64,000 nucleotides of DNA from NCBI GenBank assembly GCA_964620905.1, contig CAZUKA010000001.1:369107-433106 (forward strand), in the 5' to 3' direction. The stretch comes from an uncultured Gammaproteobacteria bacterium (lineage in GTDB: Bacteria > Patescibacteriota > Patescibacteriia > S139-126). The translations under genes were made by a program, and so were the position numbers. Positions 6,391 through 47,720 of this stretch are shown here, in pieces. The first letter of the stretch is position 1. Each line of letters starts with the position of its first letter. Under the pieces are notes generated by a model that was not told where the DNA came from, did not search any database, and worked only from the letters and a program-made list of their open reading frames with translations.

Positions 6391-8142
6391 TTACATTTTA
6401 TTTACCGTTTTGATATTTAGTAAATGCAAACCAGTAGCTAAAATATTGGCAGTGGCTTGGACTAAATGCAAACGCATCAATTTAGTCTCCTGGTCAGCTT
6501 TCAAAACTGGTACTGATTGATAATAATTATTAGCAAGTCCTGACAGCTCATACAAATATTCAGTCAAATAATTAATTTGCATTTTTTCATAGGTCAGATT
6601 GACAACAATCGGCCACTGGGAAATTTTTCTGGCTAAACCCGCTTCGCTTTCACCAAGATCAATCTGATTTAATAAACTAAAACTACCGGACTTTTGTAAA
6701 ATTCGTTGCAATCTAACTAAACTATAAAGTAAATAAGGACCAGTGTTGCCTTCCAAACTTAGCGAAGCCTGGGGATCAAAAATAATATTGGAACGGTGTG
6801 AACTTTTCAAAAACCAATATTTAATAGCGGCCACAGCAATACTTTTTGCAAGTTCTAACTGTTCAGGTTGTGACAGATCAGTTTGCCTTTTTGCTACTTC
6901 TTGGCAAGCAACCGTAGTTAAGTCGTTGATCAAATCATCGGCATCAACTACTTTACCTTCTCGGGATTTCATCTTACCATCAGGCAAAAGTACTTGCCCA
7001 TAGGCAAAATGCAAACATTTTTCCACCCAACTAAAACCCAATAAAGACAAAATTTTAAATAAAACTTTAAAATGATAAAGTTGCTCATCGCCCACCACAT
7101 AAATCATTTTATCAAAATGAAAATCTCGCCACCGCTTCAGTGCTAAATAAATATCCTGAGTGATATAGACCGTGGTGCCATCGGGCCTAAGTAATACTTT
7201 TTCACCACTATCTCTACCCCCGAGTCCATAAGTGCTCAAATCAATCACCACTGTGCCATCGATTTTTTTTTGCGCTAAGCCTTGGGTGACTGCATCCTGA
7301 ATAATTTCCCTGCCCTGATCATACAATTCACTTTCATAATAAACTACGTCAAACTCTGAACCATATGTTTGGTAGGTTTCCTGCCAACCCTGATAAACCC
7401 AGTTATTAAGTTTTGACCACAAAGCCAATACTGCTTTGTCCTTTTTTTCCCACACTGACAATAAATGACTAGCCTCGTCAGCCAAAGCTGGATGGTCATT
7501 AACTGCTTCATTATATTTAACATAAAAATTACCCACCAATTTATCGCCTTTGACTTTGGCTTTTTCTGGCGTGAGGCCAGATCCCCATTTTTGGTAAGCC
7601 AATAAACTTTTCATAATATGTATGCCACGGTCATTGATCACCTCGGTTTTAATAACTCGAAAACCAAAAAATTCATAAATTTTTGCCAAACTCATGCCAA
7701 TTGCATCATTGCGCAAATGTCCCAAGTGCAAAGGTTTATTGGTGTTGGGTGAAGAGTATTCAACTACTACCACTTGTCCCTCACCAAAATTTTGCTTTCC
7801 ATAATTTTTATCACCAGCTGCCTGGCAAACCTGACGGTGCAATTCAGCTAAGGGCAAGAAAAAATTTATAAACCCTTGCCCAGCTGTTTCCACTTTGATC
7901 TGGTTTGCTTGTAACCACTGGTGATTTCTAAGTTTTTTGCTTAATTCATCAGCTACCAAATGAGGTGATTTATTTTCCTGACTAGCTAATATCAACGCTA
8001 AATTTGTACTCAAATCACCCCAAGCTGCCTGAGAAGGGATTGATAAATCAAAATCCACTCCACCAGAAAGGTCAGTAAGAGTCTGTTTAATTTGGTGATA
8101 AAAATCAATCATCTTAACTTTATAGTAATAATTTTGGGCCAA
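6391..8142 (-). CDS. argS: Arginyl-tRNA synthetase.
   Basis: SSPNTNKPLHLGHLRN (HIGH-type motif) and the ArgRS N-terminal additional domain and DALR-like C-terminus are collinear. Confidence 0.9.
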   Translation of the reverse strand: MAQNYYYKVKMIDFYHQIKQTLTDLSGGVDFDLSIPSQAAWGDLSTNLALILASQENKSPHLVADELSKKLRNHQWLQANQIKVETAGQGFINFFLPLAELHRQVCQAAGDKNYGKQNFGEGQVVVVEYSSPNTNKPLHLGHLRNDAIGMSLAKIYEFFGFRVIKTEVINDRGIHIMKSLLAYQKWGSGLTPEKAKVKGDKLVGNFYVKYNEAVNDHPALADEASHLLSVWEKKDKAVLALWSKLNNWVYQGWQETYQTYGSEFDVVYYESELYDQGREIIQDAVTQGLAQKKIDGTVVIDLSTYGLGGRDSGEKVLLRPDGTTVYITQDIYLALKRWRDFHFDKMIYVVGDEQLYHFKVLFKILSLLGFSWVEKCLHFAYGQVLLPDGKMKSREGKVVDADDLINDLTTVACQEVAKRQTDLSQPEQLELAKSIAVAAIKYWFLKSSHRSNIIFDPQASLSLEGNTGPYLLYSLVRLQRILQKSGSFSLLNQIDLGESEAGLARKISQWPIVVNLTYEKMQINYLTEYLYELSGLANNYYQSVPVLKADQETKLMRLHLVQATANILATGLHLLNIKTVNKM

Positions 8143-8193
8143 TCAAGCAAGGTAAAAGTTGTGAGTACACGATCTTTGCGATACAATAAAAAT

Positions 8194-8640
8194 ATGGAAA
8201 TACTGACCAATAAATCAGCTTTATACAACTATTTCCCTCTACAAAAAATAGAGGCGGGGTTGATTTTGACTGGACCAGAAGTAAAATCAATCAAAATGAA
8301 ACGGGTAGATTTTAAAGGCAGTTATGTGACTATTAAAGACAATCAAGCTTGGCTCGTGGGTTTGCATGTTGCTCCTTATCAACCAGCCGGTGGTGTACAA
8401 AAAAACTATGAGCCAAAAAGACAAAGAAAACTACTTATAACTAAAAAAGAAATCAATCTTATCCGCGGACAACTAACCAATAAAGGATTGACAATCGTAC
8501 CATTGCGACTATATACTACCAGGGGTTTAGTGAAATTGGAATTGGCGGTAGTGAAAGGCAAAAAACAGTACGACAAAAAAGCTTTGCTCAAAAAAAGAGA
8601 CACTGAGCGTGATGTCAGACGAACTTTGAAAGAATATTAA
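8194..8640 (+). CDS. smpB: SsrA-binding protein SmpB. The track ORF starts at 8092 inside argS; ATG 8194 (MEILTNK...) is the likely start.
   Basis: AGLILTGPEVKSIKMKRVDFKGSYV...LVGLHVAPY...QRKLLITKKEI is typical SmpB. It lies immediately upstream of tmRNA. Confidence 0.88.
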   Translation: MEILTNKSALYNYFPLQKIEAGLILTGPEVKSIKMKRVDFKGSYVTIKDNQAWLVGLHVAPYQPAGGVQKNYEPKRQRKLLITKKEINLIRGQLTNKGLTIVPLRLYTTRGLVKLELAVVKGKKQYDKKALLKKRDTERDVRRTLKEY

Positions 8641-8724: not shown

Positions 8725-9101
8725 GGGGATGCTATCTATTCGCTAAGAAAGTGGAAACGTATGTTCAAATCGAGCGGCAACTCGCAAAACTACCAAAATT
8801 ATAAGTGCCAATACACTTATGAGCAAAATTAGGAACGCTTTTGCGCTACCTAACTTTGCACCAGTTGTAGCCTAATTTAGTCTACGACCATCGCTGAAAT
8901 CTGGCTCCAAGATTTCATAAGCGGTGTCATATCTGGAGCTTGAACGTCGATAAGCTGACTGTCGCCGTTTGAAATATTGTTCAGCACCACCAAAAAGTTT
9001 TTGCCTGATTTTATCTTTTTGGTTTTCCAATCAGGCTAAGTTTGTAAATCGTGCGTTGAAACTTTTTTACCACGTGGGTGCAAAGCCCACCATCTCCACC
9101 A
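8725..9101 (+). ncRNA. ssrA: tmRNA (transfer-messenger RNA, SsrA).
   Basis: 5' GGGGAUG pairs with 3' CAUCUCC, followed by ACCA. The T-arm is GUGGG-UGCAAAG-CCCAC. An internal reading frame ends ...NFAPVVA-UAA at 8873-8875. It sits right after smpB. Confidence 0.85.
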
Positions 9102-11845: not shown

Positions 11846-14800
11846 TCAATCTTTTTTATAATTCTTTGCGGTGTTTTTATTTATTAACTTGTCTAATTTC
11901 TTTTTTGCCTCTTTATCGCCACTTTTTGCGTCCCGCAATAAAACGCCATACTTTTGATATTCCTTCAAACCATTCAACAAAGAATCCATACTGGTTACTA
12001 CAATATTGCCCTTGTCATCAAGTTTATATTTTATTCCCATCCAACCAATAGCCTTTTTATAAAACTTGGCATCTTTGCCTATTTTTTCACCAGCTTCGTA
12101 GGTATCCAAAGTGGAATTTAAAACATATTCAATTTGTTGCTTCAATTTTTCCAAATCCTCTGAACTATCAAAATCAATTTCTTTATTATCACCTGACTGT
12201 ATTTTTCTGATTTCATCATCAAAGGCACTAAATCCTCTGGACCACTGTTTGATTGGTGGTAAGGCATGATTTTTCCATTGATCAATGGCCCGACGAAGCG
12301 AGGTATAAATTCTAGAGTTCTTTGCGCCAGCGTATTTTATTCTCTCTTTATCGCCTTTTCTAGCTGACATAATTGCTTGACCAATAGCAATATCCTCACC
12401 TCCGGATATTTTATCTCTATATCCACCAATAGCGGCTAATATACTAGATTTAAAAGCAAAGTTTGCACCACTCGAAATCATCCTGCCTGTTTTATGTCTA
12501 CCAATCGCATTTAAATATTGAAATAAACGAGTGCCCATATGAAGAGCAGGATATTTTACATAACCCTCGGGATCCCAATCAACCTGTCCCAACATAGCAT
12601 CAACTTTTTTATCACTATCAAATCTTTTGATAAAATTTCTGATATATTCAGGGGCAATTCCCAAATTATCAGCATCATTACTTACCATGATCAAATCTTT
12701 TACGTCTTTACCCCGAGCCAACTGCCTAACCAACACCGCATCATTCAATAACTTACGAATAGTACCAATGTTTTGTTGATCTTTGTTTACCAATACCTCA
12801 TGCATTGACCTCAATTTGATCTGCGGATAATCTTTTTTAAAACGGTCAATTTCAGCTAAAGTTTTATCAGAACTATAAGGACTGCCCTTTTGATCCTTGT
12901 CTGGATTATTGACAAATAAAACTATCTCAAAATCATCATCATCAACTGTTTGTTTGGTGTAGTTTTCCAAAGTTCGATAAATATTTTTTTCTTCCTGATG
13001 GCCAGCTACTGGTATACATACTGAGACTCGACACTTTTCATTGATTGGTTCAATTTGTCCAACCAATCTATCAACCTGTTGTTTGTGTTCTGAAGAAAAT
13101 GACTCGGTATATCTTTTTATTTCAGCATAACTATCAAGTTCTGCTGCTGGATTTTCTTTCAATGTTGGGGAACATTTTTTCTCAAACTCAGCTTGGGAAT
13201 TTTTATCAATCTCACCTGACATCATATAATAAGGCGGGGGAACTTCTATCCCTGGATCTTTCCTTTTGGTATTTTCCAATGACTTACGCCAATAAACCGG
13301 TATAATTGGGGGCATTTCTATTTCTCTATTTGGATCAAGATCAAAAATTGGAATTTTTTCATCACGGTCAAAAATAGCTATCGGCACTTCTTGATCAGTT
13401 GCACCTGGATATTCTGAATCCTCCAATCCTTCACCAACTGCTGTGGCTAAAATACGAACCTGATCTACACCTTCTTGAGTCTGACCAACTGTATGTACCA
13501 CTTCCGCGTATTTACCAAGATATTTAGCGTGTCCCTTATCATCAAGTGCAAATAATTTCTCCCCGATGGGCGAATCCTTGTCAATTATCACATTACCTGT
13601 CTCGGGATCTATTGGCAGTTCAATTACTTGATTTTGGGTACCTACTGACACTGACAGCTGAACCTTCATCTCTCCTTTTTTGATTAACTCTTGAGCATCG
13701 ACTGATGCTTTTGAACCGTCAACAAAAGTATGATAAGAACCATCTTTATCCATTTTAATCACATTGAAGACATAATTCCCTTCGGTGTCTAAACCGCCTT
13801 TGCCACCCCAATGTAATTTCAATTCGTTTTTGTCAAAAATTGGTTTGGGTGTGTCATTATCATACCAAAGATTTCGTTTAATCTGTTCAAATAACTCCTG
13901 GTGTTTATTGATAAAGTCTTGACTAGAATTTTCCTCAACCCCTACCCCAGCCAATAAATCACTGCCATACTTGGCGGTCGTACTTTCAAAAATTATATTT
14001 TTACTCTGCAATTCAGCTTGTAATTGCTCATCCACAATCAGACTGTTATTTTCAGCAAAATTTAAACCAGCCAAAATTGTATCGTGGTTATCTTTGGAAA
14101 AAATAGAATAAGTACCATCTACTTCTTTTTTAATATCCCAATGTTCTGGCAGTCTAACTATTTTGTCATCTATCTCAATACTATTTAAGGCATGACCACG
14201 AATCATCTCTGATATTGTTACACCATTTTCTTTTAATTCTTGTTTAAATTCTTCAGCGATAGATCCATCTGGCTCTATTTCAATTTTTTCTACTATTGTT
14301 TGCTCACCACCCATCAAAGAATAGGTCCCGTCTTCATTTTTTATCATTTCACAACCTGCGGGTATTTTTGCTACCAATCCGTTATCAATATTTACAACTT
14401 GCGTACCCTGACTGCCTTCCGGGCCATCATTCCACAAATATTCGCGTAAAGATTCTAGGGCTGAATTACTCTTGATGGCAGTTTGACCTAAAATATCTTC
14501 TTTTTTATTGAAAATACTATCAATCCCACTCTCAACCAATCCCTGCTGATTGCCGCGGAAGAAAGCAGCTCCTTCTTGAAAGGCGGTACCAACTACTGCC
14601 CCAACCATTGCTCCTTTGCCCGCTGCTTTCAAGGCTCGACTATTTCTCATTTTATTAAATAAACGGTTTTTATTTTCAACTTCGTTGCGCATAAAAAGCT
14701 CCTGACGTGAATCTACTACTTGTTTATAAAAATCGTTGAAGTCGTCAATTTTAGTTCCATCTGTCAAAACTAGACCACCTTTATTTTCAATCAGCTGTTT

Positions 14801-16177
14801 TAAATCTCTTTTCACTTGGCCGCGCAGTAAATCCATCTGTTGACGCTCATGTTCAACAGCGGTCACATCTGAATACTGAATCATGTCTATATTATGTCGA
14901 TCAGAAATTTTTACTCTTGCTTCTAAATCTGATAGCTGATCAATCGCTGTCTGTAAATGAAGATCAACACCACCTCTGGATTTACTTAAATCTTTCAAAA
15001 GCCAATGACCATTTTCATCAGTCTTTATACTGCCATCATCTTCTATTTCATACATCGTTGCTTTTAGTTGATCAATTGCTGTTGATGCTTCTATGGTTTG
15101 ATAACGGTATTGTTCCATTTCAACTCTTCGTACTGCCTCTTTTTCATCATATTTTCTGCCTTTGGCCATTTCTCTTGAGTGTTGTCTTCTCTCTTCGGTC
15201 AAACGCTTCCGCTCTCTGGCAAAACCAATTGAACCGCCAACCAAGGCTGTACCAACTAAGGGTAGTGCGCGAGCGATTGTACTGACTGATCTTTTGGCTA
15301 AACCCAAACCAACCGAAGTTGCTGTCGCTACTGCCAAAGCTGCACCGGTTTCATTTACCAGTGATGACAAAACTTTACTTTTGGCTGTACCTTTTTGCAA
15401 TTTGTCCATTATTTTATCAACCATATCAAATTTAGCTTCAGTTCGAACTCCCAATCTGGCTTTTCCCACCACAATATCAAAATTCAAATCATTATCTAGA
15501 TTGTCTATTGCCAATCCGTGTTCTACTGCATCTCGGTATTGTTTGGCCATTTCCAACATGTTGTCAGTAAATCGTAAATGATTGTCAACATGGTCTGCGG
15601 CAACACCGTGAATTTTTGATAAAACCCGGTTACGTTCTTCTTGAAATTGATTTTCATCAATTTTGCCACTGGCAAAATCTTTTAGTGCTTGTTTAATCTC
15701 CTGTTTTAAATCAGTACTATCCTCAGTTGTCTTCTCTTTTGTTTCATTTTCACCCAGCACATATCTCTTTTCTCCGGCTTCGGTATGAATTGTTTCTTCA
15801 TACTCAACATCGGCAAACCTAGAAACAATAGACTCCTTGGCTTTTTCACTATACAAGACATCTGCTTCCTCGCCAGTAAAAATATTTCCGGTTTCTCTCA
15901 TTTCCTTTTTGGCTTTTTCAACTTCTTTACGATGATAGTAGTGATGCATGGTATCGTGCTTCCACAATTTCTTGAAAAATTTCTTTGAACCATCTCTGGT
16001 AAAAAATTCTTTAAAACCTTTAATTTGTAACTCATTGACTTCCTCGGTCATACGCAAATCAGCAATATCACGGGCTTGCGTTTCTACTAAATTTTCTACA
16101 TCCACTAAAACTAATTTATTTTCCAGTTTTCTCTCCGGAGCAGAATCAATATTTCTAAAAATTTTTTCAGGTGTCAT
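11846..16177 (-). CDS. Giant multidomain protein (1443 aa). It has an N-terminal coiled-coil/charged region, two Gly/Ala-rich hydrophobic segments, a beta-rich middle and a C-terminal GT-A fold glycosyltransferase (GT2-like, DXD) domain.
   Basis: RVSVCIPVAGHQEE...IVLFVNNPD...LIMVSNDADNLG (DXD)...GGEDIAIG matches the GT-A signature. The remainder has no recognisable family. Confidence 0.6.
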   Translation of the reverse strand: MTPEKIFRNIDSAPERKLENKLVLVDVENLVETQARDIADLRMTEEVNELQIKGFKEFFTRDGSKKFFKKLWKHDTMHHYYHRKEVEKAKKEMRETGNIFTGEEADVLYSEKAKESIVSRFADVEYEETIHTEAGEKRYVLGENETKEKTTEDSTDLKQEIKQALKDFASGKIDENQFQEERNRVLSKIHGVAADHVDNHLRFTDNMLEMAKQYRDAVEHGLAIDNLDNDLNFDIVVGKARLGVRTEAKFDMVDKIMDKLQKGTAKSKVLSSLVNETGAALAVATATSVGLGLAKRSVSTIARALPLVGTALVGGSIGFARERKRLTEERRQHSREMAKGRKYDEKEAVRRVEMEQYRYQTIEASTAIDQLKATMYEIEDDGSIKTDENGHWLLKDLSKSRGGVDLHLQTAIDQLSDLEARVKISDRHNIDMIQYSDVTAVEHERQQMDLLRGQVKRDLKQLIENKGGLVLTDGTKIDDFNDFYKQVVDSRQELFMRNEVENKNRLFNKMRNSRALKAAGKGAMVGAVVGTAFQEGAAFFRGNQQGLVESGIDSIFNKKEDILGQTAIKSNSALESLREYLWNDGPEGSQGTQVVNIDNGLVAKIPAGCEMIKNEDGTYSLMGGEQTIVEKIEIEPDGSIAEEFKQELKENGVTISEMIRGHALNSIEIDDKIVRLPEHWDIKKEVDGTYSIFSKDNHDTILAGLNFAENNSLIVDEQLQAELQSKNIIFESTTAKYGSDLLAGVGVEENSSQDFINKHQELFEQIKRNLWYDNDTPKPIFDKNELKLHWGGKGGLDTEGNYVFNVIKMDKDGSYHTFVDGSKASVDAQELIKKGEMKVQLSVSVGTQNQVIELPIDPETGNVIIDKDSPIGEKLFALDDKGHAKYLGKYAEVVHTVGQTQEGVDQVRILATAVGEGLEDSEYPGATDQEVPIAIFDRDEKIPIFDLDPNREIEMPPIIPVYWRKSLENTKRKDPGIEVPPPYYMMSGEIDKNSQAEFEKKCSPTLKENPAAELDSYAEIKRYTESFSSEHKQQVDRLVGQIEPINEKCRVSVCIPVAGHQEEKNIYRTLENYTKQTVDDDDFEIVLFVNNPDKDQKGSPYSSDKTLAEIDRFKKDYPQIKLRSMHEVLVNKDQQNIGTIRKLLNDAVLVRQLARGKDVKDLIMVSNDADNLGIAPEYIRNFIKRFDSDKKVDAMLGQVDWDPEGYVKYPALHMGTRLFQYLNAIGRHKTGRMISSGANFAFKSSILAAIGGYRDKISGGEDIAIGQAIMSARKGDKERIKYAGAKNSRIYTSLRRAIDQWKNHALPPIKQWSRGFSAFDDEIRKIQSGDNKEIDFDSSEDLEKLKQQIEYVLNSTLDTYEAGEKIGKDAKFYKKAIGWMGIKYKLDDKGNIVVTSMDSLLNGLKEYQKYGVLLRDAKSGDKEAKKKLDKLINKNTAKNYKKD

Positions 16178-16198
16178 AACTTTAATATAAATAAAAAA

Positions 16199-16220
16199 AT
16201 GCTTAAACGGATTTAAGCAT
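16199..16220 (-). terminator. Hairpin that overlaps the stop of the 16213-16557 gene.
   Basis: atgcttaaa-cgga-tttaagcat, followed in the minus sense by ttttttatttat. Confidence 0.5.
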
Positions 16221-16557
16221 TCAAATAAACATTGCGAAATTGCATGAGTTCAGCCGAAATTTTTTCAGTCAAGTCGGGAATATACTTATTTAAAAATTCA
16301 TTCATCTGTTTACTATCAGATTTTTCATTATCCAATAATTTTTCAAACTCGGCCAAAGTATCTGCTGGAAGATTTTTTAAAATCATGGCATTGATTTTAT
16401 CTTCCAATCTTTCCAATAAATCCGACTTTACTTCTGCTAAAACATCAGTTTCTAAATAATCAAGTCCTTTTTCCTTTACCAATTGTTGAATAAATTGATC
16501 GTACATTTTGTCTACTTCAGCCAAATTGTCTGAACTATTTACATTTGTTTTGATCAT
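16213..16557 (-). CDS. Small, highly acidic, alpha-helical protein (hypothetical; possibly a chaperone or immunity-like partner).
   Basis: ORF with an E/D/L/K-rich helical sequence and no TM. Confidence 0.5.
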   Translation of the reverse strand: MIKTNVNSSDNLAEVDKMYDQFIQQLVKEKGLDYLETDVLAEVKSDLLERLEDKINAMILKNLPADTLAEFEKLLDNEKSDSKQMNEFLNKYIPDLTEKISAELMQFRNVYLNA

Positions 16558-16837: not shown

Positions 16838-17536
16838 ATGTTAAAAAAATTCGGAAAAAAAGTTAAAGACTTTTTTACTAGTAATGCTGCCGGCGTGGCC
16901 ACGGGTGTTGTCGGTGGACATGCTTTGAGTAGTTTCTTAATAGAACTATTTAAAGGAGGCGCTGGTGAAGTAGGCAAATTGGTCCTGCAAAATATAACTC
17001 AAACACCACCCAGAGCTGAACTGGAAAAAGTTCTTCTGGGGCTTCCTGATCCCAAAAGAATATTTTGGGAAGATAGATTAAAAGAAGCAAAGGATGATAC
17101 AAATCATCGTCCAAGCGAAAATGAAACAGTGACAGCATGGTGTAAACCGTTGCTGTTGAAAAAAATGAAAGTCTATATCCAAAACAAGGATGGAAGTCCT
17201 GCATTGGATAAAGAAGGTCATCCGGCTTATTATGAAACCGGGGAAATTCTCAATGACGACGAACTCCGTGAACATATTTACGGAAAAGTCGCAGATTTAG
17301 GAGTTGAGGAGTTCTGGATCTGGACAGATCTCCTGATCCATGATCGCTGGCAACAAATATTTCAGCGTTTCGGAAAAAAGTTTAAAAATCTTTTGAAAGC
17401 AAATTGGCAAAAAATTGCAAATCTGTATAAAAAAGTAATGACTTATACAGAAAATGAGTCCAACCGGGCTCATCAAGAAGTACGCGCTCAAAGAGATGCG
17501 CGTAGAAGAAGAATTGAAAATATTACAAATAATTAA
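16838..17536 (+). CDS. Hypothetical protein with a Gly-rich amphipathic N-terminus and a basic C-terminus.
   Basis: Strong RBS (aaaaggag) 7 nt upstream of the ATG. No family recognised. Confidence 0.55.
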   Translation: MLKKFGKKVKDFFTSNAAGVATGVVGGHALSSFLIELFKGGAGEVGKLVLQNITQTPPRAELEKVLLGLPDPKRIFWEDRLKEAKDDTNHRPSENETVTAWCKPLLLKKMKVYIQNKDGSPALDKEGHPAYYETGEILNDDELREHIYGKVADLGVEEFWIWTDLLIHDRWQQIFQRFGKKFKNLLKANWQKIANLYKKVMTYTENESNRAHQEVRAQRDARRRRIENITNN

Positions 17537-17556
17537 AAATCAAAAAGGAGTTTAAA

Positions 17557-18846
17557 ATGCTTTATTATAGCATATCTGTATTATCGTTATGTTTATTAAT
17601 CTGGGGGTACTGGTATGTACTCACCAGATTAATTAGCTTTTCCACTGCCACTTCTGGCGGTGTGGCAAATACCGTCAATGACCTATTGGGCCAAGCGGTT
17701 GATGCTGTTGAACCTATAAGTCAGCACCTTCCAATCTTGGGGCCATTGGTTCCAAGAGTTGAAAATTTCATTGCTGGGACTTTGGAAAATGTTTTAGCAT
17801 TGATTGTGCCTATGGCACACAATGTCAGGGATAGGCTAATTTGGGCCGCAGTGTATATTTCCGGGATACTAATCCTGCAGATGTTATTTACATTTATTGG
17901 CTGGCTATTTCCAGTTGCCTTCCTGGTTGTTCTAAACTTACTACTATCATACGCAGTAGCACAAACCTACGACCCAATTGTTGATGCTTTTTTCAAAAAA
18001 TATAAATTTAGAAGAAGCATCCGCCCTTTTGCACTTGTAGTCGGCTTACATCTCAACTTACTTGTCTTGACACTTTATTGGTATTTGATTGACAAAAATT
18101 TTTATCAATCAACCTTGGAAATTTTTTCTATATTTATTTTGTTAATTGTAGGTTGGGGCTTTATGCTCCTCTACAAACTGTATAGAAATGAAAAAGGTGA
18201 ATGGCAACCTAAGTTCTCTGACAAAGCCGGGGTGGTATTAAATACCGCTTCAATCATATTACTAGCATTCCTCTTGCTAGTAAAATTAATTGGGGTTGAG
18301 ACGGTAGAAAATGTTGGTGACTCTGGACAAAAAAGAGTCAAGGGTGTTGTTGAGTGGACAAGTAAACTTCTAAATAGCCCGGATTTTCTACCGGGTTATA
18401 CCAACAAGGAAACAAATCTGCTAACAGCAAATATGTTTAAACTGATGGTCGTGCCGTCAGAAACAGCTCTCAGATTCCCTGATTTCTATCAGGATAGGTT
18501 AACTAACCTCTCAACTACATATGTAAAAGTAAAACTGGAAAGTGGAGATGAGGGTTATATTAACCTTCTTGATTTAGAACAAGGTTTTCTAAACCCAAAA
18601 GAAAAAACAGAAAAATATGAAGAAGAAAAAGAATTAATTAAAAACCAAAATCAAGACACATTAAAATACGACTTTCCTGATAAAACACGATTTAAAATAG
18701 TGACTAAATCAGGAAAACCTTTTTTACAGGCCGACGGAGAACGTTGGCAACTCTGGGAGTCTGGACAAATGTTCAGAAAATTATTCCCTCAGGATATTGT
18801 AAAAGGTACAGTTGACGGAGAAAAATTCTTCGTCATAGTCCAATAA
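17557..18846 (+). CDS. Hypothetical polytopic membrane protein (~6 TM, ~240 aa) with a ~190-aa soluble C-terminal domain.
   Basis: RBS (aaaggag). Hydrophobic helices are seen in the translation. Confidence 0.55.
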   Translation: MLYYSISVLSLCLLIWGYWYVLTRLISFSTATSGGVANTVNDLLGQAVDAVEPISQHLPILGPLVPRVENFIAGTLENVLALIVPMAHNVRDRLIWAAVYISGILILQMLFTFIGWLFPVAFLVVLNLLLSYAVAQTYDPIVDAFFKKYKFRRSIRPFALVVGLHLNLLVLTLYWYLIDKNFYQSTLEIFSIFILLIVGWGFMLLYKLYRNEKGEWQPKFSDKAGVVLNTASIILLAFLLLVKLIGVETVENVGDSGQKRVKGVVEWTSKLLNSPDFLPGYTNKETNLLTANMFKLMVVPSETALRFPDFYQDRLTNLSTTYVKVKLESGDEGYINLLDLEQGFLNPKEKTEKYEEEKELIKNQNQDTLKYDFPDKTRFKIVTKSGKPFLQADGERWQLWESGQMFRKLFPQDIVKGTVDGEKFFVIVQ

Positions 18847-18905
18847 TTACAGCCGCTGGTCACGTACCGGCGGCTCTTTTTTTTACTAAATCTGATAAAA
18901 ATTAG

Positions 18906-18926
18906 ACCCTGAAAATTTCAGGGTCT
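18906..18926. terminator. Bidirectional terminator hairpin.
   Basis: gaccctgaaa-a-tttcagggtc, followed by ttttatt. Confidence 0.65.
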
Positions 18927-18930
18927 TTTA

Positions 18931-19950
18931 TTATTTTAAAATAATTAATTTTTTGGTGACAATTTTGTCATCAGCTATCAGACGATAAATATAAGTGCCG
19001 CTGGGCAAATTGTCAGGTAAAAAATTTACCTCGTGTTTACCATCAACTAATGGTTGGTTTAACAAATTGGCAACTTCATTGCCCAATATATTGAAAACAA
19101 GTAATTCTACTTGAGCTGGTTTAGGTAGATAAAACGAAATGATGGTTTCGCTATTGAATGGATTGGGATAATTGTCATAAAGCACAACACTTACCGGACC
19201 AAAAACTTCCACCTCTACGGAGCCGTAAATTTTACTTTCACCATTGTAATCCACTTGTCGCAGTCGATATTGATACTTCCCTGCTCTATTTAGCACATCA
19301 ACAAAATCATATGCCCCTTTTGTTTTTGTTGGAACAAAACCAAGCTGCTGCCATCCGAAATCTTGTCGATCAACAAAAAATCCATAATTGTTTGTTTCGG
19401 TAATTGTCGTCCAACTAAGTTGAACTGTAAATCTTTCACTGACAGCAAAAAATGAAATAAGTTCCACCGGTACTGGCGCATCAATTTGAATTGGTAAAAT
19501 AAGACTGTCAGGCAAAGCTGTGAGTTTAGCACGTAATTGATAATTTCCTAAGGGTATAGTTGAACCCAAGACAATGGTGGTATCAAAACGTATTTGCGAT
19601 CCATAAGTGAGCAGTCGGACCGTATTAGTATCTGGTGGTTCATTGGCTGGAACATTGTTCCAAATCAATTGATTATCTTGCCACAAGGAAAAGGTAACCC
19701 ATCTGGCTACAGGAAAAGTAAGATCAATCGGGAATATTCCCCAATTTTTGGCAGATAAACACAAGAAAACAGAATCTCCGACTACATAGTATGAAGTATC
19801 ACTGGTAAAAACCAGATGTAGATTTGGATTGCTTTGAGCAAATTTGGTTGTCTCATGACAGCCACAAAAATAATTGCACTCACCCGGTAGCTGAGCTAGT
19901 GGCTCAAAAGTAAAAATAAAAACAAACAACAGTAACCACAGTACTTTCAT
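18931..19950 (-). CDS. Secreted protein with a T9SS (Por) type-A C-terminal sorting domain.
   Basis: There is a signal peptide. The C-terminus YDNYPNPFNSETIISFYLP...GKHEVNF...SGTYIYRLIADDKIVTKKLIILK matches the Por_Secre_tail consensus. Confidence 0.7.
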   Translation of the reverse strand: MKVLWLLLFVFIFTFEPLAQLPGECNYFCGCHETTKFAQSNPNLHLVFTSDTSYYVVGDSVFLCLSAKNWGIFPIDLTFPVARWVTFSLWQDNQLIWNNVPANEPPDTNTVRLLTYGSQIRFDTTIVLGSTIPLGNYQLRAKLTALPDSLILPIQIDAPVPVELISFFAVSERFTVQLSWTTITETNNYGFFVDRQDFGWQQLGFVPTKTKGAYDFVDVLNRAGKYQYRLRQVDYNGESKIYGSVEVEVFGPVSVVLYDNYPNPFNSETIISFYLPKPAQVELLVFNILGNEVANLLNQPLVDGKHEVNFLPDNLPSGTYIYRLIADDKIVTKKLIILK

Positions 19951-20095
19951 GATTCCTCCAATTTTTTATTAGTTGTAGATTAATTTAATTGTCAAAGAAA
20001 TTGTTTAATAGCTTATCATAATTAAAAAAACTATTCAAATGAGTAGTTTGTTTGTCGCACACGGCTTTTAGTTTTGTCATACTGAACTTGGTTCA

Positions 20096-20115
20096 CCTGC
20101 CTGCCGGCAGGCAGG
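20096..20115. repeat. GC-rich 20-bp perfect palindrome in an AT-rich intergenic region.
   Basis: cctgcctgccggcaggcagg is self-complementary. Confidence 0.8.
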
Positions 20116-33602: not shown

Positions 33603-36448
<2,846 letters not shown>

Positions 36449-36465
36449 TATTTTTTTAAATCATT

Positions 36466-37065
36466 CTAATAGCGTTTGTAAACCCGTGAAGAAACAGTGG
36501 TCTGTAAAGACTGAACTTCTTTTTCCGCTGTTTTTGCAGTAATGTTTTCTGCCACCAAAATAATCGTTACCCGCGGTGTACTACTGGCAGCATAACCATC
36601 AGCTAAAATTCGAAAAGGATCACTTTCCGGATAAACGTAAAAGTTTGCCCTTAAAATATTTACTCCCCGCGGAGTAATGCTGGCCCAGGCAGAATTGTTG
36701 CGTTTGACTGCCAAACAACTGGTTGTGCCCGGTTCGCAATATGTCGGTGAGCTCGTGGCTACAAACACCATGGTATTGCCGACTAAATCTTTCAGTGGTA
36801 AATAATCTATATAGGGTTGCCCTGGTATATTTGTGATTGCACCATAATCAATCAAGTTCATCCTAACTTCCCTGGCTATAACTTCCATTACATAACGGGC
36901 ATCGGATTGAATCCTGGTCTCACTGGCCAAACGATTTTGCGCTGTTTGCGACAGCAAATAAATATCAGTCAAAACAATCAAACTCACGCCAAACAAAGCC
37001 AAGCCAACTACGACTTCCATCAAGGTAAAACCTTGTTTATTTATTTTTAAATCAATAAGCTTCAT
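36466..37065 (-). CDS. Type IV minor pilin / pseudopilin.
   Basis: The prepilin motif KQGFTLMEVVVGLALFG (G|FTLxE) is present. Confidence 0.7.
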   Translation of the reverse strand: MKLIDLKINKQGFTLMEVVVGLALFGVSLIVLTDIYLLSQTAQNRLASETRIQSDARYVMEVIAREVRMNLIDYGAITNIPGQPYIDYLPLKDLVGNTMVFVATSSPTYCEPGTTSCLAVKRNNSAWASITPRGVNILRANFYVYPESDPFRILADGYAASSTPRVTIILVAENITAKTAEKEVQSLQTTVSSRVYKRY

Positions 37066-37648
37066 GCCAATTATATAAAAATTCTTCCAAAATATAACTA
37101 CGTGGACGAGTATCTTCTGTCCAGAAAACTTTGCTTACTACCTTGATACCGACTGGATTATACCTATCAGTATCACACACAAAAGTAGGTGGCGAAATAG
37201 CAATAATATTAAAAGAACCATCTTTTTCCTGACACAATGATTCACTGATTTCAATAGTACGAGAAAATGGAGTGATTTGGCCAAGAGTGTCGTGGTTGTA
37301 AATACCATAACTATCCAAATACAACTGCTGGTTAACATCACCAAAATCTATTGTCCAAATCTTGGTACTTGGATTGAATTTCAAAATACCCCCCCGGGTG
37401 CCGTCATTTTTCAATCCCGTCAACCAATTTCTTTGTCGCAACCAGTTCTCATCGCGGATATTGCGCACTACTTCTAGGCCTTCTCTGGCTAAATTGGCCG
37501 CTGTAATTTGCATCACTGATGACTGACTACCTTTTAAATTTGAATAAGTGAGTGTAACCGCACCAGCAATACCGGTCGTAATCACAGCAATAGCGACAAT
37601 AATTTCCATCATCCCCTGACCTTTGTTATTTTTTATAAAAAATTTCAT
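37052..37648 (-). CDS. Type IV minor pilin-like protein.
   Basis: GQGMMEIIVAIAVITTG is a prepilin-type N-terminus. Confidence 0.6.
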   Translation of the reverse strand: MKFFIKNNKGQGMMEIIVAIAVITTGIAGAVTLTYSNLKGSQSSVMQITAANLAREGLEVVRNIRDENWLRQRNWLTGLKNDGTRGGILKFNPSTKIWTIDFGDVNQQLYLDSYGIYNHDTLGQITPFSRTIEISESLCQEKDGSFNIIAISPPTFVCDTDRYNPVGIKVVSKVFWTEDTRPRSYILEEFLYNWHEAY

Positions 37649-37649
37649 A

Positions 37650-38318
37650 TTAATTTATTTCTGTTGTAGAAATTTTACCCGATATCCAATTTATTTTAAT
37701 ACTTATCCTTTGACCAGTAGGAGTATAAATCAAACTGACCCAAGACGGGTTATAATTACCGCAACTGCCAATCTCACCCGGTCCCAAAGGTTGTATGCCA
37801 TTAACAAAAATTTCCCCTTTAGGAACAGTAAAGACTATATCCATCACATCTGCCGTGGTTTGAATACATTCGAATGCGGGATTGTTGTCAATTTTATATT
37901 CAGGTACATTCATACCATCTATCACAAAGTTGTTTGATAAATTAATGGTTTGAGCTAAATAGTCAGTAGCAGTGGTGTCAAAATAATATTTTTTAGAACC
38001 CAAAGGACAAACAGAACAGTCAGTTTCAGCAAAAATTACTATATTATTTCGTTTGTTGCTAAAATGTACGCCCCACCGGTCAGGTATATTGCCGCTAGGG
38101 AGAGCTTGGGCGGAAAGTGCGTAATTTTGCACCTGACGTAAGATATTGGCAACTTCCAAAGCTTTAAGTTTTAGCTCGCTGGTACGGTTGCCACGGTTCA
38201 AATTGGCCATGGTTAAAAGTAAAATAACGATAAAAATACCAGCTGATACCAACATTTCCGGCACCGTAAAACCACTGGTTGTTTTTTGTTTTTTTTTCAT
38301 AACCGTCCCAAATACCAA
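37650..38318 (-). CDS. Type IV minor pilin-like protein.
   Basis: SGFTVPEMLVSAGIFIVILL is a prepilin-type N-terminus. Confidence 0.65.
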   Translation of the reverse strand: MVFGTVMKKKQKTTSGFTVPEMLVSAGIFIVILLLTMANLNRGNRTSELKLKALEVANILRQVQNYALSAQALPSGNIPDRWGVHFSNKRNNIVIFAETDCSVCPLGSKKYYFDTTATDYLAQTINLSNNFVIDGMNVPEYKIDNNPAFECIQTTADVMDIVFTVPKGEIFVNGIQPLGPGEIGSCGNYNPSWVSLIYTPTGQRISIKINWISGKISTTEIN

Positions 38319-39085
38319 CTGATTATTTTATCTCCCCATAGTAGAGCAATAAAAGCACCAATAGTCAAAAAAGTACCAAACGGAATCTGTGCGCCCCAAC
38401 GTTTCTTTTTTAATAATACCATACCTAGACCAAATATCGCACCAATCACATAAGCCAACATCAGACCAGCCAAAATATCAGGCCAACCTAAAATAAACCC
38501 CAGCAGTGCCCCCAGGCGAATATCACCGCCGCCAATCCATTTGCCTTTTGATACTAAAAACTGCAACAAAAAAAACCCACCTCCCACCGCAGCAGCCAAT
38601 AAAATATTTAAAAAATTTGCCAGAGAAAAATCAACTATCATTTGCCACAAAACAGCAACCAGCATTGCGGGAAAGGTGATAATATCCAAAATCAAAAAAT
38701 ATTTCAGATCATACAAAAATATGATAACCAAAAAAACCGTCAGTACATAAAACCCGGATAAAAAAACAACTTCCACAAAATTTGGCGGCAAAATAGTTTG
38801 ACTAGATAAAACTTGCGTCTGATAAATCAATAAAAATAAAGCCCCACAAATAATCTCAACTATCGGATATTGCCAGGAAATTCTTTTATGGCACCGACGG
38901 CAGCGGCCGCGCAAAAAAATAAAACTTAGAATCGGTATCAACTCATACCAAGCTAAATTGCGCTGGCACAGCGGACAGTGGGAACGAGCGGAAATAAAGT
39001 TCAATTTATGATGCAAGCGATAAACCAAGGCATTGATAAAACTGCCCAAAGCTGCACCGATAATAAAAATAAAAAGCTTAATCAT
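38297..39085 (-). CDS. pilD: Prepilin peptidase (A24 family).
   Basis: The N-terminal CPLC...CRRC zinc motif, multiple TMs and a GGGDIRLG region are present. Confidence 0.88.
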   Translation of the reverse strand: MIKLFIFIIGAALGSFINALVYRLHHKLNFISARSHCPLCQRNLAWYELIPILSFIFLRGRCRRCHKRISWQYPIVEIICGALFLLIYQTQVLSSQTILPPNFVEVVFLSGFYVLTVFLVIIFLYDLKYFLILDIITFPAMLVAVLWQMIVDFSLANFLNILLAAAVGGGFFLLQFLVSKGKWIGGGDIRLGALLGFILGWPDILAGLMLAYVIGAIFGLGMVLLKKKRWGAQIPFGTFLTIGAFIALLWGDKIISWYLGRL

Positions 39086-39175
39086 TGTATATATTATATC
39101 ATTTTAAGGAGTATAAATAAAAATCTTCCCTTTCAAGGGGAAGATTTTTAAAATAGAAATCAACTTTATAATATA

Positions 39176-39649
39176 TTACCATGCACCACAAGCAGTAGAA
39201 GAAATACCTGAAGGTGTGGCACATTTTTCACCGCCCGTTAATTCACCTGTAGTTCCACCTAAACAAAAAGCTAACCTATAAGATGCACATGGTGCAGCAG
39301 CACATGCAGCGCCGGTTGCACTTGCAGATCTGTATCTATAAGCATTATTTGCAGCAGTACAAGTTGTTCCGTCTGCTGGTGTGGGAGCAGTAGGCATAGC
39401 TTGCATATAAGTAGCCATCGATCCGGCGATACCAGTAACTGCCGCTAAAGGATCTTGTACGGGATATCCACCTTGTTCATTATAATAAAGCTCGAACGCT
39501 GTTTGCATTTGCTTTACATCAGCAACGCGCTTAGCGTCACGCGATCTGGATCTGGCATTGTTCAATGAAACTACCGCTAAAGTAGAAAGTAAACCAATGA
39601 TAGCAATTACCACCAAAAGTTCAATTAAAGTAAAACCTTTTTTATTCAT
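39176..39649 (-). CDS. pilA: Type IVa major pilin. The probable start is the ATG at 39649 (MNKKGFTLIELL...); the track ORF extends to a GTG at 39691.
   Basis: Class III signal peptide plus FTLIELLVVIAIIGLL. A strong SD (aaaggaggtg) lies 7 nt upstream of ATG 39649. The Cys-rich C-terminal domain is encoded by GC-rich DNA. Confidence 0.85.
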   Translation of the reverse strand: MNKKGFTLIELLVVIAIIGLLSTLAVVSLNNARSRSRDAKRVADVKQMQTAFELYYNEQGGYPVQDPLAAVTGIAGSMATYMQAMPTAPTPADGTTCTAANNAYRYRSASATGAACAAAPCASYRLAFCLGGTTGELTGGEKCATPSGISSTACGAW

Positions 39650-39860
39650 AGTTTCACCTCCTTTCAGAAGGGAAAAAATAGTTTTTGCCACAGGACAAGC
39701 CGCGGTGACAAAAACGATTTTTTATAAAGATTTGTTAAATTTTTTATATTTTTATTGCTAAAACAGATCGACCTTTAACAATAAATTAATTATAGCATAT
39801 TTTTCAAAAAACCACAAGCTTAAATAAAATCTTTACAACTAGCTACTACATAAATAATTA

Positions 39861-41066
39861 TTAAAAACTACTAGCCAGCTGATACATGGGTAGTATAATA
39901 GCCGCTACCATCAGCCCCACGCCTACACCCATCAGCACCATAATCAATGGTTCTATTAGACTTACCATATTGGCTACCAAATTTTCAATTTCCCGAGCAT
40001 AAAAATCAGTAATTTTTGTTAAAATTTGCTCAAGTCTACCGGTTTGTTCTCCCACTGACATCATTTGCGATACTAAAGGAGGAACTTCCGGACTTTTCAA
40101 AAACAGCGAAGCTACACTATTGCCATCCTCTACTTCTTTGATAGTTTTTTTTATCAAATCTTTATACAAATCATTGCCCACTACATCAGCCGTTACTTCC
40201 AGTGCGGCCGTCAAAGGCACGCCACCCACGATTAAAGTAGAAAGTGATCTGGTTAGACGTACCAGATATATCCGTTGCCACAATTTGCCAAACACCGGAA
40301 TTTTTAGTTTCAGCCGGTCATAGTAAATCTTAGCTGGTCCTCGCCTAGTCAGACGGAACAGAGTATACCCACCACCGCCAACCAAAAAAAGCAAAATATA
40401 CCAATAGTGGCGCATAAAATTTGATACCATAATCAAAATTCGCGTCGCAATTGGCAACTCTGCACCTGATTCAGAAATAATAGCTGTGAGTTTTGGCACC
40501 ACAAACACCATCATCACAATCGCCACAATCGTCAAACCGACCAAAATAAACACCGGATAAATCATAGCGCCTTTTATTTTGGAAGTAAGATCATAATCTT
40601 TTTCCTGCTGATCAGCTAAATAGTTCAACACTTCGTCCAACTTACCACTAGTTTCGCCGGATCTAAGCATCGCTACATAAAAATCAGAAAAAGTTTTATG
40701 GTACCGTCCCAAAGCTTGAGACAATTTAGCTCCACCGTCAACTTCATCAGCCACTTCAGAAATAATAACTTTCAAACGTTTATTGTCTGTTTGATTTACC
40801 AAAATTTTCAACGCCTGCACAATCGGCACGGAAGCGGAGGCCATCACCGCCAGCTGGCGCGAAAAAACCACAATATCTTTATTTTTTATCCGATTTAAAA
40901 AAGGCAAATCAAAATTCAAAGACAATTTTTCTTTTTCTTCCAAAGACAAAATAATCAAACCCCGATCAACCAAAATTGACGAGGCGACGTTTTCGGACGG
41001 TGCTTCCACTGATCCTTGCATAACTTCACCGCGGGCATTGCGAGCACGGTATTGGAAAAATGCCAT
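39861..41066 (-). CDS. pilC: Type IV pilus assembly platform protein (GspF family).
   Basis: Two T2SS-F domains and three TM segments. Confidence 0.88.
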   Translation of the reverse strand: MAFFQYRARNARGEVMQGSVEAPSENVASSILVDRGLIILSLEEKEKLSLNFDLPFLNRIKNKDIVVFSRQLAVMASASVPIVQALKILVNQTDNKRLKVIISEVADEVDGGAKLSQALGRYHKTFSDFYVAMLRSGETSGKLDEVLNYLADQQEKDYDLTSKIKGAMIYPVFILVGLTIVAIVMMVFVVPKLTAIISESGAELPIATRILIMVSNFMRHYWYILLFLVGGGGYTLFRLTRRGPAKIYYDRLKLKIPVFGKLWQRIYLVRLTRSLSTLIVGGVPLTAALEVTADVVGNDLYKDLIKKTIKEVEDGNSVASLFLKSPEVPPLVSQMMSVGEQTGRLEQILTKITDFYAREIENLVANMVSLIEPLIMVLMGVGVGLMVAAIILPMYQLASSF

Positions 41067-41072
41067 AAAAAT

Positions 41073-42143
41073 TTATGATCTTAAGATTCTTTTTAAATTT
41101 TCCGGGTCATTCACTTCCTGCAAGGCAATAGTCGGATCAATTTGCCCGGACCTGACTAGTTCGGCAATATACCGATCCATAGAAATCATTCCTTGTTCGC
41201 GCGAAGACAATAAAATACTGGATAGCTGGGCCAATTTATTTTCCTTGATTGATGAAGCTATCAAAGAGCTGCCAAACACTATTTCCATCGCTAGCACCAA
41301 CCCTCCACCCAAACGAGGTAATAATTTTTGTATGATTGCTCCCCTAAATACTTTTGATAATAAATAACGAGCATGCTCCCGAGTATCTTCTGGACAAGTA
41401 TCAATTACGCTATGCAACAACTGACCAATGCTATTTCCTTCCAGAGGCATAAATACCAACACACCACTGTTGGCAATCTCCAACAATCGATACATTATCC
41501 GCGGACTATTGACCCGTGTCACCATCATCACATCAACATCCTCTTCTCTGATCTCCAAAGCTTCCAGCCAGGATTCAGCATCACCACCAATATCTTTTTG
41601 TTGAATTAAACTTTTATTGCCAATCAGAACATGCTCTATGGGTTGTTCTAGAGTGAGAATATTTCTGCTTTGTGACCGATTGATCGTCTCGATAAAACCA
41701 ACCATGGTAGTGGTCTTACCCGCCCGATAAGGGCCACCAATCAGCACCAAACCACTACGTTCGTGGGTTAAATTTTCTACTGCTTTGGGAAAACCAAGTT
41801 CAGCTAAAGTTTTAACAATCACCGGTATATAGTGAAAAACTATTGAAGGAAAACTTTTTTGAAAAAATATATCTACCCGAAAACGTGCCCGATCGCCAAA
41901 ATCATAAGCAAAAATAATTTCTTTTCGACTACCTAAAATTTGTTTTTGTTCAGGACTAAGTAAGATATCAATTACTCCTTGAATAAAGTCATTGGTAATC
42001 ACTTCTTCATCCGACATCTCCACCAACTCTTCGTATAATCTCATCATTGGTCGCGTACCAACCACCAAATGCAAATCCGAGCCGTGACGTTCAGCTACCA
42101 CCGTCAAGATGCGATTTAGTGTAATATTGAGTGTAGTTTGCAT
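41073..42143 (-). CDS. pilT: PilT-like pilus retraction ATPase (divergent Walker A).
   Basis: The N-terminal HGSDLHLVVGTRPMMR and the P-loop GGPYRAGKTTT, with PilT-like length. Confidence 0.75.
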   Translation of the reverse strand: MQTTLNITLNRILTVVAERHGSDLHLVVGTRPMMRLYEELVEMSDEEVITNDFIQGVIDILLSPEQKQILGSRKEIIFAYDFGDRARFRVDIFFQKSFPSIVFHYIPVIVKTLAELGFPKAVENLTHERSGLVLIGGPYRAGKTTTMVGFIETINRSQSRNILTLEQPIEHVLIGNKSLIQQKDIGGDAESWLEALEIREEDVDVMMVTRVNSPRIMYRLLEIANSGVLVFMPLEGNSIGQLLHSVIDTCPEDTREHARYLLSKVFRGAIIQKLLPRLGGGLVLAMEIVFGSSLIASSIKENKLAQLSSILLSSREQGMISMDRYIAELVRSGQIDPTIALQEVNDPENLKRILRS

Positions 42144-42520
42144 TATTGCTTTTGTAATAATTTTTTTAAACTGTCCACTAATTCATCAGGGTCGGTATTG
42201 ATTTTGACAAAATAAGCCCGCACCAAATCCGGGATCGGCTCGTTTTCTTCGGCAGTAGCCCGATCATAATTTGACAGCACTACACACAGTGGTTGGGGTT
42301 CGGGCGATTCGGCTACCAAGCGCAACAAATCCCAACCAGAAAGTTCGGGAATATTGAGATCTACCACCGCTGCTTGGGGATGATATTTTTCAATTGTTCG
42401 CCAGGCTGACAGACCATCGCGCGCCGAATAAACCATAAAACCTTTGTCACTAAACTTTCGCGCATACAAAGACAATAAATATTGATCATCCTCCACAATT
42501 AAAACTGATTGCTTGTCCAT
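42143..42520 (-). CDS. Single-domain response regulator (CheY/PilH-like receiver).
   Basis: VLIVEDD...VVDLNIP...K is the REC pattern. It is embedded in the pil operon. Confidence 0.75.
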   Translation of the reverse strand: MDKQSVLIVEDDQYLLSLYARKFSDKGFMVYSARDGLSAWRTIEKYHPQAAVVDLNIPELSGWDLLRLVAESPEPQPLCVVLSNYDRATAEENEPIPDLVRAYFVKINTDPDELVDSLKKLLQKQ

Positions 42521-42524
42521 GGTT

Positions 42525-44285: not shown

Positions 44286-44291
44286 AAAAAA

Positions 44292-44585
44292 TTATTGTAT
44301 AGGTACAAAGGGATTATCTCTACCTTTGGCATCTAAATTTGGCTGATATTGGCTATCATTTTTCAATTCAGAAAAACGAAGATCTTGATCTAAACTTTGT
44401 TCAAAAATTTGTTTGCTAGGAAGTTTTTGCGTCTCAATCTGACTTGACGGTTGAGTACTTAAAGAAAAAATTTGAGTCAGATTGGCACCGTCTTTCTTCG
44501 GTCCCCACAGTACCCAAAAAGTAATAGCCGCAACTACTATCAGGATAGAAAATAAAATAATATTTTTCTTTTTTTGTTTACTCAT
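44292..44585 (-). CDS. Small TM-anchored protein in the pil operon (PilP-like?).
   Basis: ORF with an N-terminal TM, overlapping pilO by 8 nt. Confidence 0.35.
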   Translation of the reverse strand: MSKQKKKNIILFSILIVVAAITFWVLWGPKKDGANLTQIFSLSTQPSSQIETQKLPSKQIFEQSLDQDLRFSELKNDSQYQPNLDAKGRDNPFVPIQ

Positions 44586-45201: not shown

Positions 45202-45203
45202 AT

Positions 45204-46463: not shown

Positions 46464-46468
46464 AAAAA

Positions 46469-47665: not shown

Positions 47666-47720
47666 GAAATAATATGGTATTGATTGCTAAATTATACCAC
47701 ATTTTTTAATTTTTATGAAA

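Follow-up and report, generated by a model that had tools for sequence, protein, structure and literature searches.

How does a gene for a protein with the C-terminal sorting domain (CTD) of the T9SS (type IX secretion system) come to lie in a genome from a phylum that is held to have neither an outer membrane nor such a system? The question is raised by a 64,000-nucleotide stretch of DNA, referred to here as the window, which comprises positions 369,107 to 433,106 of contig CAZUKA010000001.1 in assembly GCA_964620905.1, filed as an uncultured Gammaproteobacteria bacterium and placed by GTDB in the Patescibacteriota. The gene occupies positions 18931-19950 on the minus strand, as given in the preliminary description, which was made by reading the sequence alone, and is complete: the frame encodes 339 amino acids (aa) from an ATG start, it ends in a TAA that is followed by a second TAA, and gene calling on a separate Logan contig (L001) gave a protein identical to it. 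The product appears to be a secreted protein of three domains, namely an N-terminal domain resembling the proteinase inhibitor BsuPI, a middle sandwich that we call the pre-CTD domain, and the CTD itself. Our analysis makes it very likely that the gene is an ancient transfer that has since become native and selected in its host, and we consider it probable that a former T9SS cargo protein is now exported by Sec, its CTD surviving as a structural or binding domain; that the role of the CTD is only structural has, in our judgement, an even chance of being correct.

The proposal that the last ~80 residues form a Por secretion tail is upheld by curated profiles. The type A sorting domain covers residues 256-339 (18934-19185, minus strand), a placement drawn from TIGR04183, PF18962, the AlphaFold2 model and the ratio of nonsynonymous to synonymous substitution rates (dN/dS). 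TIGR04183 (Por_Secre_tail) matches residues 261-337 of 339 over profile positions 2-71 of 72 with 43 bits (E 3.4e-11; curated cut-off 23), and with PF18962, for which the cut-off is 27, the score is 35.3 bits; for the type B tail (CHU_C, PF13585 / TIGR04131) the CHU_C score of 15.1 bits lies below the cut-off of 27. The orthologues P0004 and P0006 also pass the type A profile, with scores of 32.9 and 33.4. Every one of the four motifs quoted earlier (NYPNPFN, GxHxxxF, SGxYxYRL and KKLxxxK) is found in the sequence, as NYPNPFN at residues 260-266, GKHEVNF at 304-310, SGTYIYRL at 317-324 and KKLIILK at 333-339, and N260, P262, N263, P264, F265, N266, G318, Y320 and K339 are invariant across the alignments. 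AlphaFold2, run with a 59-sequence alignment, modelled residues 160-339 as two beta-sandwiches (predicted local distance difference test, pLDDT, 83-97), of which the CTD has an immunoglobulin (Ig)-like beta-sandwich fold with six strands within residues 269-337 (pLDDT 83-97). A Foldseek search of the full model against PDB returned generic tandem Ig/FN3 arrays only, including the CTD-bearing PorU 6za2_B, and did not distinguish the domains. At the level of sequence profiles, the CTD is a genuine type A domain. We also observed that synonymous divergence (dS) is about half as high in the CTD-coding third of the gene (18934-19185 and the orthologous segments) as elsewhere in it (0.44-0.60 vs 0.7-1.6), a difference seen in all four within-clade comparisons.

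A sorting domain of this kind had been read either as a sign of horizontal acquisition or as a clue that the lineage assignment is wrong. The latter reading can be rejected, as the relatives of LigA and of the neighbouring CYTH protein are Patescibacteria and the gene lies within conserved patescibacterial synteny on many assemblies. Among the at least 8000 relatives of LigA, every match with an organism name belongs to the Patescibacteria (57-60% identity), the named groups being Buchanan-, Kerfeld- and Komeilibacteria and the Parcubacteria group, and unnamed NCBI relatives reach 75%. The CYTH protein, when used to scan GTDB species genomes, gave 79 loci, all of them in Patescibacteria-type metagenome-assembled genomes (MAGs), and the two nearest are fully syntenic with the window. 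Judged by these genes, the source genome is patescibacterial. The public titles of several representative MAGs in GTDB, among them L008, L009, L010 and L011 ("uncultured Gammaproteobacteria bacterium", "Candidatus Micrarchaeota archaeon", "Woesearchaeota") clash with their patescibacterial content and synteny, and are probably placeholder labels from the submitting pipelines. The same lineage is indicated by a pair of VirB2-like T4SS_pilin genes in the window and by its cluster for type IV pili at 35600-49844, in which PilM and N-methyl pseudopilins were assigned by Pfam, and PilN/O-like proteins, PilB, PilT, PilC, a prepilin peptidase, a response regulator and a major pilin by reading the translations. 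The pilus locus had been described as lacking a secretin, and we agree in so far as none of its unassigned open reading frames (ORFs) matches a secretin, or indeed anything else. Neither Pfam nor NCBIfam gave a match for one further protein of the cluster, an orphan of 707 aa (47721-49844).

Within this lineage the gene occupies a fixed slot, between patatin-GAF-CYTH-VIT1 on one side and hypotheticals, pilin and L20 on the other, on 12 or more contigs, which come from no fewer than 11 samples (L001-L007, L087-L089, L093 and L094, from JGI and Logan assemblies). The full order is LigA, GatC, GatA, LGT, patatin, (GAF), CYTH, (VIT1), the gene, convergent hypotheticals, VirB2-like pilin, L20, L35, IF3, SmpB, ArgRS and IleRS. 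The orthologues show identities of 79% (P0001 and P0002), 93% (P0003, partial) and 46-49% (P0004-P0006), and a metagenome scan with a narrower alignment (A5) added two further loci, both in the subclade already known. When composition was compared with that of the window, the gene proved typical (GC 0.371, z -0.19; GC at third codon positions, z -0.77; rank 19 of 62 for codon typicality). The transfer is therefore not recent, that possibility being ruled out by the ameliorated, native composition together with the conserved synteny.

The gene also appears to be maintained. By the Nei-Gojobori method, applied within two subclades, dN/dS is 0.12-0.16 overall; taken singly, the N-domain has 0.09-0.11, the middle domain 0.11-0.15 and the CTD 0.12-0.27, and since these values are low in all domains, the whole protein, tail included, is under purifying selection. 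The frame is intact in all lineages that carry the gene (339-344 aa), and the CTD, although only 43-46% identical between lineages, has kept all of its sorting motifs, terminal lysines included. The gene diverges faster than its housekeeping neighbours (46-50% vs 53-77% identity), and the tree of orthologues mirrors the divergence of the flanking genes. Signals for translation and termination are likewise in place: a Shine-Dalgarno sequence, GGAGGA, stands 4 nt 5' of the ATG (19954-19959, minus strand), and a hairpin resembling a bidirectional intrinsic terminator, shared with the convergent gene, begins 5 nt past the stop codon (18904-18926), with a 10-bp stem and a T-run on both strands; the terminator scan of this region gave 7 sites vs 1.2 expected. 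Read in this way, the gene has a strong Shine-Dalgarno sequence and a terminator of its own.

In two genomes, L008 and L009, the nearest in GTDB, the synteny is complete and the gene slot holds only ~40 bp. By the identity of patatin, GAF, CYTH and VIT1, both are as close to the window as the gene-bearing L087, and by patatin, VIT1, ArgRS and L20 they are closer to it than the gene-bearing L002 and L007, CYTH being about equal. The simplest history consistent with these relationships is that the gene was present in the common ancestor, descended vertically, and was cleanly lost in the L008/L009 sub-lineage.

Relatives outside the clade point to an origin elsewhere. Residues 158-339 gave 1118 protein matches, of which the best, with 40-46% identity, are T9SS type A proteins named by their sources as Ignavibacteria, and these Ignavibacteria matches carry many different passenger domains. 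In a neighbour-joining tree of the C-terminal 185 residues, computed without support values, the patescibacterial orthologues form one clade inside Ignavibacteria-type cargo. Full-length members outside patescibacterial synteny are P0245 (L092) and P0241 and P0246 (L091 and L095). The neighbours of P0245 on L092 are polysaccharide genes, a CarboxypepD_reg protein and a second protein with a Por_Secre_tail, and P0241 and P0246 stand in tandem paralogue pairs on L091 and L095. These pairs (BsuPI-like, pre-CTD and CTD; L091 1646-3876 and L095 751-2719) belong to an AT-rich lineage and lie 3' of a conserved 130-aa membrane protein. The three contexts look typical of T9SS-bearing bacteria of the Fibrobacteres-Chlorobi-Bacteroidetes (FCB) superphylum, and the L091/L095 lineage is itself probably FCB-like. 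Horizontal acquisition, as put forward in the preliminary description, is thus supported by a gene that sits in a conserved patescibacterial slot, yet has Ignavibacteria-type T9SS cargo as its closest relatives outside the clade; what has to be added is that the transfer was old (ameliorated, vertically inherited, with one clean loss) and that the gene is under purifying selection.

The machinery that would act on such a CTD did not come to light alongside it. It had been stated that the window contains no PorK/L/M/N or SprA genes, and the ten unannotated window proteins that we checked (eight of them longer than 200 aa) indeed include no match to T9SS families. In bacteria that have a T9SS, the number of CTD proteins runs from tens into the hundreds. 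A hidden Markov model (HMM) of the CTD, built from 96 Ignavibacteria-type tails and run at E<=10 over 1.39 Mb, recovered the orthologues and FCB-like controls in L090-L092, including a CTD on L092 that does not belong to the family, but gave no further CTD either in the window or in the 1.17 Mb that came from 79 other Patescibacteria genomes. The T9SS has been placed in the Bacteroidetes and possibly other FCB phyla (PMC5837995), and Patescibacteria have been proposed to have no outer membrane (PMC12102498). That this host has neither would be expected at the level of its phylum, our data covering the 64-kb window. A literature search of incomplete coverage, combining T9SS or Por_Secre_tail with Patescibacteria, CPR (candidate phyla radiation), Parcubacteria and Saccharibacteria, found no report of such CTDs.

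What, then, does the CTD follow? The protein opens with a predicted signal peptide of 19 residues (MKVLWLLLFVFIFTFEPLA; 19894-19950, minus strand), read from the sequence with cleavage inferred before Q20, and AlphaFold2 places a helix at residues 2-13 within it. The signal-peptide region is conserved in all orthologues, and the A/S-Q at its junction is near-invariant across the family. A "Q-rule", by which Gln follows the signal peptide, has been reported for Bacteroidetes, with 77% in Ignavibacterium (PMC5837995); the A/S-Q junction fits this rule, and would be a lead consistent with the donor rather than a test of it. Directly after the inferred cleavage site comes a Cys-rich motif, Q-[LF]-P-G-E-C-N-Y-F-C-x-C (residues 20-31; 19858-19893, minus strand), which was defined by the orthologue alignment and is invariant in 6/6 patescibacterial orthologues; its core, QLPGEC[ND]Y, is also present in the distant members P0024 and P0246. 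Lipoprotein or other covalent anchoring was considered and dismissed, as there is no lipobox (the first Cys lies 6 residues past the inferred cleavage), no LPXTG and no C-terminal transmembrane segment.

The N-terminal domain proper (residues ~40-157; 19480-19833, minus strand) is probably a BsuPI-like beta-sandwich, as suggested by hhalign and a PDB profile match. The family alignment A4 aligned with the Pfam-verified BsuPI repeats A7 over 91 columns (probability 98%, E 1.6e-13, ~18% identity), the top PDB profile match was 3isy_A, the intracellular proteinase inhibitor BsuPI (E 0.05), and the family profile matches P0248 and P0249 carry PF12690 at the matched residues. PF12690 itself gave no match to the window protein at E<=1, and the family member P0245 reached 18.5 bits, under the gathering score of 22.9. 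AlphaFold2 modelled the domain poorly, both alone (six sequences, pLDDT 45) and in the full model. The assignment, which draws on sequence profiles rather than structure, would hold at superfamily level only, because the window protein falls short of the Pfam model. The family is rare, with 11 proteins, P0248 and P0249 among them, found by profile in 1.84 billion representatives. In a scan of GTDB species representatives with the N-domain alignment A2, 434 pattern matches yielded 0 confirmed members, and the family is therefore absent from these representatives at that sensitivity.

Between this domain and the CTD lies the pre-CTD beta-sandwich (residues 158-255; 19186-19479, minus strand), with the pattern PVELxSF...W.T.TE.NN.GF...YRL.Q.D.dG. 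It was delimited with the AlphaFold2 model, where it has seven strands at pLDDT 84-95, and with an alignment of 59 cargo proteins, across which 13 of its positions are invariant. No Pfam or NCBIfam model matches it. The same domain stands immediately before the CTD in hundreds of Ignavibacteria-type proteins, and by this measure it is the common sandwich of the Ignavibacteria-type class of T9SS cargo. One of its motifs, GKYQYRLRQVD (residues 224-234, 19249-19281), partly matches positions 54-80 of the CTD HMM, and the CTD may have given rise to this sandwich by an old duplication.

Taken together, the account that we favour is as follows. An FCB-superphylum cargo gene of Ignavibacteria/Bacteroidota type very probably entered, in the distant past, the ancestor from which a small clade of Patescibacteria descends, and has since been inherited vertically, taking on native composition, remaining under purifying selection, and being lost in at least one sub-lineage. 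Its product would be exported by Sec through the N-terminal signal peptide from a host with a single membrane; with no outer membrane to cross, the CTD would encounter neither a translocon nor the shuttle PorV nor the sortase PorU. Because neither an outer membrane nor a T9SS translocon is expected from the phylum, the CTD most likely remains uncleaved as a third Ig-like sandwich. The mature product would be a rod made up of three sandwiches, either extracellular or associated with the wall, with the BsuPI-like head, behind the Cys-rich motif, as its likely functional part, presumably in ligand or protease binding or in protease inhibition.

Several points weigh against this account. In the window protein the inferred cleavage site of the signal peptide has a Pro at -3. 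The CTD, which keeps the surface-exposed, signal-like residues KK 333-334 and, at its very end, K339, is as well conserved as the remainder of the protein, and a mere spacer would not need as much. The donor is named only from the source labels of the matches and from the neighbour-joining tree mentioned above, and the absence of a T9SS and an outer membrane from the gene-bearing genomes is an expectation, the data covering 64 kb here and ~20 kb around each orthologue.

Other explanations of the locus have to be set beside this one. The likeness of the C-terminal half to Ignavibacteria proteins brings to mind an artefact of assembly or binning, in which an Ignavibacteria fragment was joined to a Patescibacteria contig; however, 12 contigs or more, assembled by JGI and Logan from different samples, have the same junctions on both sides, a synteny that refutes the idea, and with native GC and codon usage as well as an orthologue tree that follows the divergence of the flanking genes, we regard such an artefact as next to impossible. 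A decaying, functionless remnant of the transfer would account for the loss in L008/L009 and for the faster evolution relative to the housekeeping neighbours (46-50% vs 53-77%), but the frames of 339-344 aa are intact in all lineages, dN/dS is 0.12-0.16 overall, and the gene has a strong Shine-Dalgarno sequence and its own terminator, all of which makes decay very improbable. The protein could also be ordinary cargo of a lineage whose outer membrane and T9SS are encoded outside the window, given that only part of the genome is covered and that the CTD scores fall in the normal range of functional cargo. We hold this to be highly unlikely as well, seeing that all named relatives are Patescibacteria, that the pilus cluster has no secretin, that 64 kb contain a single CTD and 1.17 Mb of loci from the related phylum none, and that the closest relatives do without even the CTD gene.

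A further explanation takes the conservation of the CTD at face value. The domain would be a working signal for the T9SS of an Ignavibacteria/Bacteroidota host, the epibiont secreting a captured mimic of host-type cargo, with a CTD that binds to the PorV/PorU attachment complex at the host surface, or undergoes processing by it, and so tethers the BsuPI-like head or the epibiont itself. In favour of this idea, the CTD is under purifying selection and has kept all motifs and the terminal lysines at 43-46% identity, it is the sole CTD protein seen in these genomes, and its nearest relatives are Ignavibacteria cargo, as a transfer from host to epibiont would have it. Patescibacteria are, moreover, widely held to be obligate epibionts (PMC12102498). 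Against it, nothing points to an association of this clade with a host, a sandwich of purely structural role should be under purifying selection just as much, and two sister genomes (L008 and L009) manage without the gene. The T9SS, furthermore, recognises CTDs, as far as is known, from the periplasmic side, and we know of no report that exogenous CTD proteins are taken up or processed. A host-directed signal hence seems improbable to us, and an old transfer whose product is now exported by Sec remains the explanation that we prefer.

Comparison with known systems shows where the protein departs from its relatives. Its anatomy appears to be that of standard T9SS type A cargo of Ignavibacteria/Bacteroidota (TIGR04183 / PF18962): a signal peptide followed by Gln, a passenger, the pre-CTD sandwich and a C-terminal domain of ~80 aa with the NYPNPF, GxY.Y and K...K motifs, which scores above the cut-offs, the C-terminal half being 40-46% identical. 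However, such cargo forms large families in T9SS bacteria, whereas here a single CTD protein was seen, in a phylum held to lack an outer membrane and a T9SS. For this latter reason the window CTD probably cannot perform the function that defines its family, and the defining feature that is probably missing is the machinery in the same cell. In Porphyromonas gingivalis, the translocon recognises the CTD, which PorU then cuts off and an anchor of anionic lipopolysaccharide (A-LPS) replaces; translocon, PorU and A-LPS would not be expected as partners in the window host. The gingipain RgpB and other P. gingivalis CTD proteins, on which CTD-dependent secretion has been worked out experimentally as a paradigm, resemble the window protein in having a Sec signal, Q at +1, a passenger, an Ig-like linker domain and a CTD (PMC5837995). 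The N-terminal passenger, in turn, seems to be a remote homologue of BsuPI of Bacillus subtilis (PF12690; PDB 3ISY; hhalign 98% over 91 columns), from which it differs in its ~18% identity, with the Pfam model unreached, in adding the Cys-rich N-terminal motif, and in belonging to a protein that is predicted to be secreted, whereas BsuPI is intracellular. Any inhibitor activity is putative.

Some features of the surrounding DNA may be recorded here. At 20096-20115, in the AT-rich DNA that separates VIT1 from the CTD gene, there is a perfect GC-rich palindrome of 20 nt (CCTGCCTGCCGGCAGGCAGG), which may be the stem of a VIT1 terminator despite having no T-run; a repeated mobile element is ruled out, as the palindrome is present in a single copy in the window. 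Between the gene slot and the pilin, a block of fast-evolving hypotheticals without Pfam or NCBIfam matches is conserved in position clade-wide (window 16838-18846, L002 11064-14672, L008 11325-14097). Its members in the window are a protein of 232 aa and a membrane-rich one of 429 aa, and a 202-aa member present in L002, L004, L007, L008 and L009 is missing from the window and L087. In L008, L009, L087 and L002 the VirB2-like pilin directly adjoins this block; in the window, a gene for a 1443-aa protein, with a weak glycosyltransferase-like match in its C-terminal part, and a 114-aa gene lie between the two (11846-16557), an arrangement that looks like an insertion of ~4.7 kb confined to the lineage of the window. 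A transfer-messenger RNA (tmRNA) at 8725-9101 was found with Rfam RF00023 (93 bits) and was not reported by ARAGORN, and the adjoining ORF at 8092-8640 (plus strand) is probably smpB, going by the position of SmpB in the syntenic loci.

The locus thus presents a well-documented oddity in an unexpected host, for which the most likely explanation is a mundane one. It is a contamination-proof case of a T9SS sorting domain conserved in a phylum that is held to be without the machine, and as such it cautions that the label "T9SS type A sorting domain-containing protein" in an annotation is no evidence for a T9SS or an outer membrane. In ecological terms, an old transfer from bacteria of Ignavibacteria/Bacteroidota type into the CPR is among the few types of clue to the partners of uncultured epibionts. 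For the biology of the CTD itself, the gene may serve as a natural experiment on a sorting domain freed from secretion, which could act as a structural sandwich, as an adhesin or as a signal between species. Should the last of these turn out to be true, a secretion sorting signal would for the first time be seen in use across species, and it would indicate which host an uncultured CPR clade lives on.

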